Part shown: piece by piece, positions 1 to 3,483 of the stretch
Position numbering within the stretch: the first letter of the stretch is position 1
Layout: every line of letters begins with the position of its first letter
Virus record (IMG/VR): IMGVR_UViG_2728369593_000026
Coordinates: 1 to 3,483 of that record
From: a virus
Taxonomy: Duplodnaviria > Heunggongvirae > Uroviricota > Caudoviricetes
Direction: 5' to 3' (one strand)
Length of the DNA stretch: 3,483 nucleotides
The notes under the pieces: generated by a model
What the model was told of the DNA's origin: nothing
The model's database searches: none
The model's input: only the letters and a program-made list of their open reading frames with translations
Made by a program: the position numbers and the translations under genes

Positions 1-99
1 CCTCGTAGTGTTAAACGTTATGGTGAAATTAGTGGAAATGTAGGTACAGAAACCCGTCCACGAAATATTGCATTTAACTTTCTGGTGAGGGCTAAATAA
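1..99 (+). CDS. Tail-fibre protein, C-terminal end (5'-truncated by window edge); variable receptor-binding portion of the + orientation
   Basis: Frame 1 is open from the window edge to TAA at 97-99, translating ...PRSVKRYGEISGNVGTETRPRNIAFNFLVRAK*. It sits immediately upstream of a tfa gene, the usual stf-tfa arrangement. The homology is recalled, not searched. Confidence 0.55.
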   Translation, partial: PRSVKRYGEISGNVGTETRPRNIAFNFLVRAK

Positions 100-132
100 T
101 GAAACCTTTTTGATGAAAATGGGCTGGCTACA

Positions 133-690
133 GTGCCGGGCGATATGCGTTGTTTTTATTATAATGCAGTAACGTATGAATATACCGGCTGGTCTGATGA
201 ATATATTAATACTGGCGTAAGTATGCCCGCCTGTTCCACTGGTATTGACCCGAGCGAAAACATTCCGGGAAAAGTGGCAGTATTTACGGGTAAGGGATGG
301 AGCCATGAAGAAGACCATCGCAATGAGACCGTTTACTCAACTGAAAATGGCGCAGCTGTTACAGTGGATTATATCGGTGCCATCAAAGACGGTTATGTCA
401 CGCTTTCACCGTTAACGCCATACGATAAATGGGATGGTGAGAAATGGGTGACGGATACCGAGGCACAGCATAGCGCCGCAGTAGAAGCGGCAGAAGCACA
501 GCGCCAGTCGCTGATTGATGCTGCAATGGCTTCCATCAGTCTGATTCAACTGAAATTACAGGCCGGGCGGAAGCTGACGCAGCCAGAAAACACCCGACTT
601 AACGCTGTGCTGGATTATATTGACGCGGTGACGGCAACAGATACCAGCACAGCGCCGGACGTCATCTGGCATGAACTGCCGGAGGCGTAG
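133..690 (+). CDS. tfa: Tail-fibre assembly protein (Tfa/U family chaperone)
   Basis: 185-codon ORF ending TAG at 688-690. It aligns in my recollection with lambda Tfa (e.g. AVF..EEDHR..TVY and DKWDGEKWVTDTEA against lambda QKWNGTAWVKDTEA) and carries the C-terminal DTSTAPD motif. The start is uncertain: GTG at 133 or ATG at 145, both with weak Shine-Dalgarno sequences; in-frame stops at 97-102 exclude anything earlier. Confidence 0.85.
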   Translation: MPGDMRCFYYNAVTYEYTGWSDEYINTGVSMPACSTGIDPSENIPGKVAVFTGKGWSHEEDHRNETVYSTENGAAVTVDYIGAIKDGYVTLSPLTPYDKWDGEKWVTDTEAQHSAAVEAAEAQRQSLIDAAMASISLIQLKLQAGRKLTQPENTRLNAVLDYIDAVTATDTSTAPDVIWHELPEA

Positions 691-1105
691 GCCATTCAAT
701 ATCTGGCGCACCGGAAGTATCGACCAGCTCCAGTGCGTCCAGATAATCCAGCCACAAATTATATTGCGCCAGTTCCTCACCTTTCAGGCGACCAATCGCT
801 GCTTTACCAGGCCATTGCTTACTGTTTATGTATTCGTTGACCTGATTAATCAATTGCTGCTTTTCCAGCGCGGCTGCGGCAATTTGTTCCTCATGAGTTG
901 GCGGTGGAATTTCCCCCCAGGTGGGAAGGCCATCATCACCCGCGATGCGTACTTTCCCTTGCAACGTTCTGTCTTCAATAAATTCCATGTAAGTGTCATA
1001 TGTCACTTCGACAACATCAGCAAGTTCCCATCCGGCCTGTTCATATTTCGCCGCATCATTTTTAGCGAAAAAACTATTATTTGAGGCGCTATAAACCATT
1101 TCCAT
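662..1105 (-). CDS. Alternate tail-fibre assembly protein (Tfa'/U'-like) belonging to the opposite-orientation cassette
   Basis: 147-aa ORF with ATG at 1103-1105 (reverse strand) and stop at 662-664. Its C-terminus carries the same Tfa signature (LWLDYLDALELVDTSGAPDIEWP) as the + strand Tfa. It lies directly downstream of the minus-strand fibre cassette, with one nucleotide between that stop and this start. Confidence 0.8.
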   Translation of the reverse strand: MEMVYSASNNSFFAKNDAAKYEQAGWELADVVEVTYDTYMEFIEDRTLQGKVRIAGDDGLPTWGEIPPPTHEEQIAAAALEKQQLINQVNEYINSKQWPGKAAIGRLKGEELAQYNLWLDYLDALELVDTSGAPDIEWPTPPAVHAR

Positions 1106-1106
1106 A

Positions 1107-1505
1107 TTAATACCCTACTGCAATATAAAAAACTGATTCACCAGCGTCCTGAGCACCTGTCCCCGGAATTCCAGACCAGCCTTTGTTAATGAATGCAAAA
1201 CCGGTATTACTCAGATCAGATGCTCTGTACATCGGGCTGAATATCCAGTAGTTGGCTGCATATGTTTGTCCGAAAACAATGCCATAGCACTGATTTGTAA
1301 ATGGCGTAGAAAATAATTTTCCACCATTACCAGCGATAGCACCGAATCGCATCTGGAATCCATTAGGGAAATTAACGCCACCCGATGGGGAAGACCAGTA
1401 AGACATATCAGGTATCTGATTATCTCCTGTGCCCACATCCCTTTTCGCCGCTTCTCCTAAACCAACGTTTATGAAAATACAGAAATAACGAGCAAATGGC
1501 ATCAT
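1107..1505 (-). CDS. Alternate tail-fibre C-terminal (variable) cassette, Sv'-like; appears promoter-less and unfused in this orientation
   Basis: Minus-strand ORF ending TAA (reverse of 1107-1109), Gly/Asn/Ser-rich like phage fibre tips (…GTGDNQIPDMSYWSSPSGGVNFPNGF…). The reading frame runs through the crossover site at 1452-1477 and stops being meaningful beyond it; the ATG at 1505 is probably not a real start. This is the expected layout for a cassette that becomes fused to the constant fibre 5' part after inversion. Confidence 0.7.
   Translation of the reverse strand: MMPFARYFCIFINVGLGEAAKRDVGTGDNQIPDMSYWSSPSGGVNFPNGFQMRFGAIAGNGGKLFSTPFTNQCYGIVFGQTYAANYWIFSPMYRASDLSNTGFAFINKGWSGIPGTGAQDAGESVFYIAVGY
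1452..1477. other. Din-family invertase crossover site (pix/gix/hix-like), right boundary of the invertible segment
   Basis: TTCTCCTAAACC-AA-CGTTTATGAAAA: two 12-bp half-sites in inverted orientation (9 of 12 positions symmetric) around a 2-bp AA core. It fits the recalled consensus TTnTCnnAAACC-NN-GGTTTnnGAnAA and the hixL sequence TTCTTGAAAACCAAGGTTTTTGATAA. It lies 55 bp upstream of the invertase start and inside the minus-strand fibre reading frame, as gixR does in Mu. Confidence 0.75.
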
Positions 1506-1531
1506 TCCTGCTTTTGTCAGGGAGAGCTACC

Positions 1532-2416: not shown

Positions 2417-2550
2417 ATCTGTTAAAAGCCAGAAGCATTCCCTTCGCTGACTTTATAGTCAACCATAACACACACTCTACTGTCTGAGTCCAGCGTTTTT
2501 TAACATTCTTGTTAAGATTATGTGATCTTTAGCGCGGGAGGAAAATATTG

Positions 2551-3207
2551 ATGAAACAGCCTGCGCCCATTTATCAGAGAATTGCGGGTCATCAATGGCG
2601 ACATATCTGGCTTTCAGGCGATATACACGGTTGTCTTGAGCAATTGCGCCGCAAATTATGGCATTGTCGTTTTGATCCGTGGCGAGATTTACTTATCTCA
2701 GTGGGAGACGTTATCGATCGTGGGCCGCAAAGTTTACGTTGCCTGCAGTTACTGGAACAACATTGGGTTCGTGCGGTAAGAGGCAATCATGAACAGATGG
2801 CGATGGATGCGCTGGCATCCCGGCAGATGTCTTTATGGTTGATAAATGGCGGCGACTGGTTTATTGCGCTGGCAGATAATCAACAGAAACAAGCGAAAAC
2901 GGCGCTGGAAAAATGTCAGCATTTGCCCTTTATTCTTGAATTACACAGTCGCACCGGCAAACATGTTATTGCTCATGCCGATTATCCAGATGATGTCTAT
3001 GAATGGCAAAAGGACGTCGATTTGCATCAGGTCTTGTGGAGCCGCTCGCGATTAGGTGAACGCCAAAAAGGGCAGGGAATTGCAGGTGCTGATCATTTCT
3101 GGTTTGGTCATACACCTTTGCGCCATCGCGTGGATATTGGCAACCTGCATTATATTGATACCGGTGCTGTCTTTGGGGGAGAACTGACTCTTGTGCAATT
3201 GCAATAA
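2551..3207 (+). CDS. pphA: Serine/threonine protein phosphatase 1 (PrpA/PphA), calcineurin-like metallophosphoesterase
   Basis: 218-aa ORF starting ATG at 2551, with GGGAGG Shine-Dalgarno at 2535-2540. It carries the metallophosphatase motifs GDIHG, GDVIDRG and GNHE. The sequence MKQPAPIYQRIAGHQWRHIWLSGDIHGCLEQL… matches my recollection of E. coli PphA. The ORF-track start at 2548 is a TTG one codon upstream and is rejected in favour of the ATG. Confidence 0.92.
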   Translation: MKQPAPIYQRIAGHQWRHIWLSGDIHGCLEQLRRKLWHCRFDPWRDLLISVGDVIDRGPQSLRCLQLLEQHWVRAVRGNHEQMAMDALASRQMSLWLINGGDWFIALADNQQKQAKTALEKCQHLPFILELHSRTGKHVIAHADYPDDVYEWQKDVDLHQVLWSRSRLGERQKGQGIAGADHFWFGHTPLRHRVDIGNLHYIDTGAVFGGELTLVQLQ

Positions 3208-3399
3208 TTAAAAATCACCGTACTCCTGTGCAGGTCGCCAGAAACCATCTATAAAATCCTCAATCGGAAAACAACCGCCATGGCGGATCCGTTGATCGCT
3301 CATAGAATAAAGACACTGCTGTTCCGTGTTGTAGACATCCACAACAATATCTTCACAACCGCCATCCAGGTAGCAAACAAAAAGTACCAGCGCGAACAT
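3208..3399 (-). CDS. yebW: Small conserved hypothetical protein, 63 aa, consistent with YebW
   Basis: Minus-strand ORF with ATG at 3397-3399, preceded by GGGGA, and stop at 3208-3210: MFALVLFVCYLDGGCEDIVVDVYNTEQQCLYSMSDQRIRHGGCFPIEDFIDGFWRPAQEYGDF. Size and position next to pphA match what I recall for E. coli yebW. The frame stays open upstream to the window edge, so a longer form cannot be excluded. Confidence 0.55.
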   Translation of the reverse strand: MFALVLFVCYLDGGCEDIVVDVYNTEQQCLYSMSDQRIRHGGCFPIEDFIDGFWRPAQEYGDF

Positions 3400-3483
3400 T
3401 TCATCCCCGAAGTGTGGTGCCGTACCGTTAAGTTTAGGAGAGATTTTACAACGGGGGAATAACCCGGACAAATAACCCGCCAT

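Follow-up and report, generated by a model that had tools for sequence, protein, structure and literature searches.

DNA invertases of the Gin/Hin/Cin/Pin family act at two inverted sites. They cut at the central dinucleotide and flip the DNA between the sites, and they need Fis and an enhancer located in the invertase gene. In Escherichia coli K-12, the e14 element carries such a switch, with the genes in the order stfP (ycfK), tfaP, tfaE, stfE, and pinE, of which stfE is curated as a pseudogene. Inversion of the e14 segment fuses stfE to ycfK (PMC4272514). According to another report (Kirigo et al. 2025, PMC12529663), the flip creates a pin-proximal chimeric gene, stfE2, in which the leader of stfE is joined to the gp53-like end of StfP. 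In the light of this report, the silence of a cassette stored beside the invertase is the majority view rather than a certainty.

The window, which is the whole stretch of 3483 nt analysed here, is identical to the first 3483 nt of the draft E. coli contig AKYH01000074.1 (assembly GCA_001605745.1), with offset 0. The right half of an invertible tail-fibre segment of the e14/Mu type lies within it. The gene order is stf-end, tfa, tfa', stf', and pin, the same as in e14 (Table 1). We consider, with a probability of roughly 85%, that the region is the right half of a Pin-type switch, as in the P region of e14 and the G segment of Mu, and that the pin-proximal cassette is parked. This class of switch, its invertase, and its site are already known and are already annotated in RefSeq (pinE, tail fiber assembly protein). 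The myovirus prophage adjacent to pphA, the constant part of 112 aa, and the divergent Gp53-like tip are cargo variation, with no new mechanism.

Table 1. Features of the 3483-nt window (positions from its first nucleotide)
Feature	Position	Strand	Evidence
Tail-fibre cassette A, end (32 codons and stop)	1-99	+	ORF list
tfa A, assembly chaperone gene	99-690	+	Caudo_TAP
tfa B, assembly chaperone gene	662-1105	-	Caudo_TAP
132-aa ORF, cassette B and fixed leader	1107-1505	-	ORF list, translation
Right (pin-proximal) crossover site	1452-1477		e14-type site match
Fixed spacer, crossover point to pin	1466-1531	-	translation; e14 comparison
pin, serine DNA invertase, 184 aa	1532-2086	+	Resolvase and HTH_7
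Prophage right end to approximate chromosome junction (pphA upstream region)	2087-2386		genomes without spacer
pphA, chromosomal	2548-3207	+	ORF list
yebW, chromosomal	3208-3483	-	ORF list

The element is a myovirus-type prophage inserted beside pphA. At the same spot in related E. coli genomes, the tail module of myovirus type is complete, with tube, tape measure, baseplate J, and wedge. This module ends with a fibre gene of 215-295 aa, located directly upstream of the tfa genes. The prophage spacer between pin and pphA (at least 80%) is carried by 228 of the 5426 complete E. coli genomes. Among the matches listed, the spacer-less genomes H67-H70 match only from ~2386, indicating that the junction between prophage and chromosome is there. 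No RNA family was matched in the window with Rfam.

Position 1 of the window is the end of the contig, and the break lies 99 nt upstream of the fibre stop codon. Because the contig ends there, the left crossover site and the constant part of the fibre are absent from the molecule. It was considered whether the break itself is the inversion point. This was rejected: the break is ~440 nt off the expected left site, and the right site is crossed unbroken.

The right crossover site, TTCTCCTAAACCAACGTTTATGAAAA, is 26 bp long and is composed of TTCTCCTAAACC-AA-CGTTTATGAAAA, with the central AA at 1464-1465. No other place in the window matches the e14-type site, from which it differs by 1 mismatch, and none of 200 shuffles gave any match. 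The e14 site and Mu gixR can both be aligned to it base for base. The inner half-site (1452-1463) travels with the cassette and the outer half (1466-1477) stays fixed. In the comparison with e14, different cassettes cease to be homologous at precisely the inner edge of the site. In the relatives L001, L003, L005, and L007-L016, the left site is TTCTCC(C/T)AAACC-AA-GGTTTTCGAGAG and is located ~440 nt beyond window position 1, outside the contig. In L003, the polymorphic T1458 has moved with the cassette and is found at the left site, and C1466 remains beside pin, which places the exchange within 1459-1465. This interval surrounds the central AA, as expected for the Gin/Hin/Cin/Pin family.

The Pin protein starts with MLIGYVRVS9TNDQ and contains the Resolvase (1.5e-51) and HTH_7 (4.9e-14) domains. 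It shows 96% identity to PinE of K-12 e14. Over its first ~170 nt, pin is almost the same as e14 pinE, and in P1 the recombinational enhancer is annotated at the corresponding place in cin. It is likely that Pin is active in this strain. The best phage match to Pin, vB_EcoM-689R6, was rejected as a relative of the prophage, being an e14 region with the chromosomal flanks icd, hflD, and mnmA.

The flipped form of the segment is observed in a closely related genome. Window positions 2-1470 are the exact inverse of positions 9636-11106 of locus L003 (GCA_047897415.1), with 99.8% identity, and contig positions 1451-10371 are collinear with L003 on the same strand, with 99.3% identity. The fibre of L003 (231 aa) consists of a constant part of 112 aa (MAKNDF...TALENLGLGE) fused in frame to cassette B. 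Residues 13-132 of the window ORF are 100% identical to residues 112-231 of this fibre, apart from V14/L113 at the junction. The parked ORF beside pin in L003 (189 aa) carries the plus-strand cassette of the window and ends with ...SRSVKRYGEISGNVGTETRPRNIAFNFLVRAK. The tfa B protein of 147 aa is found, identical, in the expressed position in L003. L005 (GCA_023546125.1) shows the orientation of the window with 99.83% identity, and has an intact fibre of 289 aa and an intact Tfa of 197 aa. In this between-strain comparison, therefore, the segment is present in both orientations, with the window and L005 on one side and L003 on the other, and the breakpoints are at the sites. In 14 related loci, both tip types (Gp53-like_C and Collar) are found in either position, and the ORF next to pin is the shorter in every case (124-189 aa vs 215-295 aa).

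The preliminary description of this stretch had proposed that the minus-strand cassette is stored unfused. This was borne out, as the cassette here is without the 112-aa constant part that it has in the flipped twin L003. These comparisons support the reading of the cassette adjoining pin as the unfused, stored copy. The layout is the usual one for switches of the e14, Mu, and Fels-2 types, and the unfused position of cassette B follows from this architecture, in which the pin-adjacent cassette is left unfused.

The orientation may, with somewhat less than even chances, be only the path taken by the assembler. In that case the culture held both orientations and the molecule has no fixed state. 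Consistent with this, Pin is intact and near-identical prophages are found in both states. In K-12 cultures, both orientations of e14 are present side by side (PMC4272514), and PMC12529663 gives about 30% of e14 as inverted. The contig is smooth through the right site, with no break, indicating that one orientation at least dominated.

Under the Pin-type switch, the fibre gene would have a constant 5' part of ~112 codons, located outside the segment and upstream of the window. It would be completed by one of two alternative 3' cassettes, each with its own Tfa chaperone gene, and the two pairs would be arranged tail to tail in a segment of ~1.9 kb. Pin would cut both 26-bp sites at the central AA, and the segment would flip. 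The fibre ORF, last in the late tail operon, would be completed by the cassette brought beside the constant part, and the completed fibre would be made on induction, with the translationally coupled tfa. The other cassette, beside pin, would have only 18 fixed codons and no constant part for attachment to the baseplate. On this contig, the parked pair is the Gp53-like cassette (minus strand, 1107-1465) with its tfa (662-1105), and the collar-type cassette and its tfa are turned toward the side expected to hold the constant part. The parked copy is probably untranslated. The constant part is probably present upstream in this genome, and the relatives suggest that the plus-strand cassette is in the "on" state. 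The late operon is off in a lysogen. Because the fibre gene ends the late tail operon, "expressed" would mean expressed only on prophage induction. Segment orientation would determine the host range of the induced phage. The 132-aa ORF is better annotated as the unfused 3' cassette of a phase-variable fibre gene than as a free-standing "hypothetical" or "gp53-like" protein.

Both the minus-strand ORF and the crossover site of the preliminary description are real. It had stated that the ORF continues only 28 nt beyond the site before a stop at 1506-1508. The first ATG (1505-1503) is indeed 28 nt beyond the site, but there is no stop there. The reverse-strand triplet at 1506-1508 is GGA (Gly), and there are seven more open codons (LSLTKAG), with the in-frame TAG at 1527-1529. 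The further claim that the ORF lacks a plausible start is contradicted by two ATGs (1505 and 1502), and the equivalent ORF is annotated as a CDS. Gene callers and RefSeq give it 131-133 aa, under the names "hypothetical", "gp53-like domain-containing", and "phage tail protein". The exact sequence of 132 aa gave no record on look-up; the gene caller of the contig took the second ATG, resulting in 131 aa.

On the minus strand, 1466-1531 encodes the leader, with ATG-ATG followed by MMPFARYFCIFIN, and 18 fixed codons join cassette B. The ORF of 132 aa is thus composed of the leader MMPFARYFCIFINVGLGE and a tip of 114 aa. The start of the ORF is 26 nt from the start of pin (1532). At the other end, the stop of cassette B (1107-1109) is one nt from the start of tfa B. 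The similarity of cassette B to Gp53-like_C (E=0.011, 16.7 bits) is below the cutoff of 24.9 and covers positions 4-84 of the 84 of the profile. The product of tfa B matches Caudo_TAP (PF02413) with E=3.3e-30, and the gene has a convergent overlap of 29 nt with tfa A. The PDB sequence search with the fused fibre gave noise only, and NCBIfam gave no matches for the fibre or Tfa proteins.

The absence of a ribosome-binding site, as proposed earlier, is roughly right. AGGA is present, abutting the first ATG, but its anti-SD pairing is -4.7 kcal/mol and the spacer is 0 or 3 nt. The values for pin and pphA are -8.2 kcal/mol at 6 nt and -10.3 kcal/mol at 8 nt, respectively. The earlier text had also named a promoter and a start codon serving the minus cassette as evidence against storage. 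Start codons do exist, whereas a crude consensus promoter scan gave no sigma-70-like match upstream of the ORF on the minus strand. On the plus strand, 1466-1531 is the upstream region of pin, with the SD sequence GGGAGAG (~1520-1526), and in the same type of scan no convincing -35/-10 pair for a pin promoter was found within it. To read the minus-strand ATGATG as the complementary strand of a CATCAT -10 box would be a guess.

These start codons bear on a different view of the pin-proximal ORF, in which it is not silent. A free protein of ~14 kDa would be made from the ATG at 1505 or 1502, consisting of the 18-residue leader and the Gp53-like receptor-binding tip. Its transcript would be shared with tfa B, and the protein would act like StfE2, sitting on surface receptors and keeping other phages from adsorbing, which would give the switch two outputs per orientation. 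We consider this improbable, even though several observations are in line with it. The ATG-ATG is in frame with cassette B, and the frame is open through the site. The build is the same as that of e14 StfE2 (leader and gp53-like tip), and the e14 leader, MMPFACYFFIFINVGLGE, is near-identical. The e14, Mu, SEN8, and KP12 systems all keep the leader ATG, the open frame, and a site core 61-62 nt away from the invertase start. PMC12529663 reports that T2 adsorbs less when StfE2 is overproduced from a PT5-lac vector, and that a strain cured of the plasmid, in which ~83% of the chromosomes are inverted, is resistant to T2.

However, the SD sequence of the minus-strand ORF is weak and too close to either ATG, and the minus strand offered no promoter-like site to the scan. 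The gap between the ORF and the pin start is only 26 nt, so any promoter of the ORF would be located inside pin, in antisense. The leader start is absent in five of nine other systems (LLS, mEpX1, phi80, YenM_201.16, and Shae_phiSM). The upstream regions of LLS, mEpX1, phi80, and YenM_201.16 are unrelated, and Shae_phiSM has the 61-nt spacing but lacks a leader start with an open frame. Chance alone would leave ten codons open in ~60% of cases. The leader peptides vary freely (MMPFARYFCIF, MPCVPKSTII, and MPFTTVFCIF), giving no sign of constraint at the protein level. An element upstream of the invertase gene would be an equally good reading of the conserved plus-strand DNA block, ATGGCATSAT. 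The available part of PMC12529663 does not include native stfE2 expression among its measurements; the protein was made from a vector promoter and RBS. Outside the junction motif, the tip of the window ORF and that of StfP are not significantly similar.

It is similarly doubtful that the parked slot of e14, Mu, Fels-2-like, and KP12-like switches yields a low-level free receptor-binding fragment with its chaperone. If this were true, each flip of the segment would give a lysogen a different block to the adsorption of other phages, and the StfE2 report would be generalised beyond e14. The locus is a second, divergent example bearing on whether invertase-proximal cassettes are silent.

At the other side of the segment, the end of cassette A translates as PRSVKRYGEISGNVGTETRPRNIAFNFLVRAK, and its stop codon TAA (97-99) overlaps the ATG of tfa A (TAATG, 97-101). 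The 289-aa fibres of L005 and L001, like the 189-aa parked ORF of L003, have a C-terminus that matches PRSVKRYGEISGNVGTETRPRNIAFNFLVRAK. The residue at the contig end is P instead of S in L005, L001, and L003, and L001 has one more difference (G vs D). The cassette A type, represented by L005, matches Collar with E=0.0036 and 17.7 bits, below the cutoff of 24. For tfa A, the match to Caudo_TAP has E=9.9e-26.

The preliminary description had found the plus-strand fibre end at 1-99 followed by its tfa in the expected expressed arrangement. Both are present, but the tfa is frameshifted: because of a 2-bp deletion at about 106/107, the frame from ATG 99 meets TGA at 111-113. The sequence is ATGAAACC--TTTTTGATG, compared with ATGAAACCTGTTTTTGATG in L002 and ATGATACCTGTTTTTGATG in L001, and TG is missing relative to both. 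The deletion is absent from all compared relatives, and it is the sole indel against L003 and L005 over about 1.2-1.5 kb. The rest of the tfa A frame runs from 103 to 690, with possible restarts at GTG 133 and ATG 145. The gene caller of the contig gives a tfa A product of 181 aa. The deletion may be an error at the contig end or a real lesion. If the lesion is real, the "on" fibre would be without its normal chaperone, unless translation restarts at GTG 133 or ATG 145.

Such a lesion would also fit a decaying remnant, in which the switch of this strain has lost function through the tfa A frameshift and perhaps an IS insertion or rearrangement at the contig end, and neither cassette leads to a working fibre, so that on and off would mean nothing functionally here. 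This is unlikely, although less so than a free product of the pin-proximal ORF. Of three near-identical copies, only this assembly has the 2-bp deletion, the contig breaks away from any crossover site, and the chromosomal yebT is frameshifted on the same contig. In the related loci L010 and L011, IS insertions or missing fibre genes are observed in the fibre module. On the other hand, the deletion is only 106 nt from the contig end, where assembly errors are common, and a restart would cost only 11-15 residues. Pin, both cassettes, tfa B, and the crossover site are all intact, and the rest of the segment is 99.8% identical to intact relatives. No IS end is visible at the contig terminus, where the homology to the relatives begins at base 2.

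Among the known switches, P1 was set aside for the comparison of the layout, as its C segment is downstream of cin. The G segment of Mu (gin; S/U and S'/U') shows the same architecture, with 61 nt from the site core to the invertase start. Its parked S' ORF likewise has an ATG ~29 nt outside the G boundary, in the frame of the fibre, and in the Mu record the expression of S'/U' is annotated as confined to G(-) phage. In contrast, the invertase of Mu is only ~78% identical, the cassettes and the constant part are unrelated and much longer, and the leader is MPCVPKSTII.

SEN8 of Salmonella and KP12 of Klebsiella, which are Fels-2/P2-like, have the same layout (H, tfa, tfa', H', and invertase), and their invertases are 86-88% identical to Pin. 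They share the leader ATG and the spacing of 61-62 nt, and the parked cassette of KP12 begins with GLGEAAKRDVGTGDNQIPDM, like that of the window. They differ in having a P2-type tail module, with the invertase between the fibre and sheath genes, and other constant parts.

StfE2, as described in PMC12529663, resembles the 132-aa ORF in its fixed leader, its gp53-like tip of ~110 aa, and its pin-proximal position. The tips are unrelated beyond the junction motif, and StfE2 was provided with a vector promoter and RBS.

The e14 element is different in being a lambdoid remnant at icd, whereas the window belongs to a myovirus-type prophage at pphA whose relatives have the full baseplate and sheath module. 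The constant part is also different (112 aa, MAKNDF..., in the relatives of the window), and the Gp53-like tip of the window is highly divergent from that of StfP. In the two elements the site, the 54-nt spacer, and the leader, MMPFA(R/C)YF(C/F)IFINVGLGE, are all nearly identical. Both have one collar-type and one Gp53-like cassette, the StfP tip of K-12 being a strong match to Gp53-like_C. The K-12 counterpart of the state of the window is the "inverted" (StfP2/StfE2) one rather than the reference one.

Contig AKYH01000074.1 has one of its ends at the first position of the window. The break falls within the variable cassette of the tail fibre, outside any crossover site, and no insertion sequence (IS) end is visible at the contig terminus (window position 1). 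The first base of the window is C, versus T in the related loci. A 2-bp deletion is located in tfa A, the tail-fibre assembly chaperone gene of cassette A (window 99-113), at about 106/107, where CCTGTTTTT is changed to CCTTTTT. It cuts the open reading frame to 4 codons. In sequence comparison, the deletion is absent from the related E. coli loci L001 and L002, and also from the near-identical L003 and L005. As the deletion is only 106 nt from the contig end, it may be an assembly error.

Sequence comparison between L005 and the window indicates that the fibre tips are mosaic inside the cassette. The parked cassette, which is the unfused fibre cassette next to pin, matches the window in L005 (1-127) only up to window position 1190 and is divergent beyond it. 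The chaperone gene of this cassette, tfa B, is identical between the two despite the diverged parked cassette.

The prophage-chromosome junction is placed at about 2386 of the window. This position is approximate; in the complete E. coli genomes sampled that lack the prophage spacer, the match begins only there. At least 80% of the spacer between pin and pphA is present in 228 of 5426 complete E. coli genomes. Neither a tRNA nor an Rfam RNA was found at the junction.

On the chromosomal flank, the minus-strand yebW ORF (3208-3483) is open for 91 aa, with its ATG at the extreme end of the window. YebW is annotated as 63 aa in most RefSeq genomes, and the 91-aa call is also seen in the relatives L007, L013, and L015. 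Outside the window, yebT is split in L004 at about 4018-4177 (contig about 6929 and 7083-7088). The first lesion is a +1 insertion, and the second, 155 nt further on, changes CAGCTG to CTAGCTAG by two 1-nt insertions, creating TAG stops. Taken together, the insertions bring the reading frame back about 53 codons later. They are either an odd lesion or sequencing errors.

In three relatives, a gene pair for a PhdYeFM-like antitoxin and Fic lies within the tail operon, flanked by baseplate genes. The same slot contains DUF4282 or unrelated ORFs in other relatives. It looks like a hot spot for cargo ("moron") genes.

Features and their coordinates.
Feature	Locus	Coordinates
PhdYeFM-like antitoxin and Fic pair	L003	5431-6251
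PhdYeFM-like antitoxin and Fic pair	L005	5143-5963
PhdYeFM-like antitoxin and Fic pair	L007	3853-4673
ATGGCAT(C/G)AT block with 61-62 nt spacing	window	1466-1531
ATGGCAT(C/G)AT block with 61-62 nt spacing	L017	5620-5685
ATGGCAT(C/G)AT block with 61-62 nt spacing	L018	4027-4092
ATGGCAT(C/G)AT block with 61-62 nt spacing	L020	
ATGGCAT(C/G)AT block with 61-62 nt spacing	L023	

In e14, Mu, SEN8, and KP12, the invertase gene begins a constant 61-62 nt from the core of the crossover site, and the plus-strand block ATGGCAT(C/G)AT is conserved. Read on the complementary strand, this block gives the parked ORF its leader ATG. The block may be a promoter element of the invertase gene. Block and spacing are absent in four of the five other systems compared. 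Shae_phiSM keeps the block and a 61-nt spacing, but without an open leader frame.
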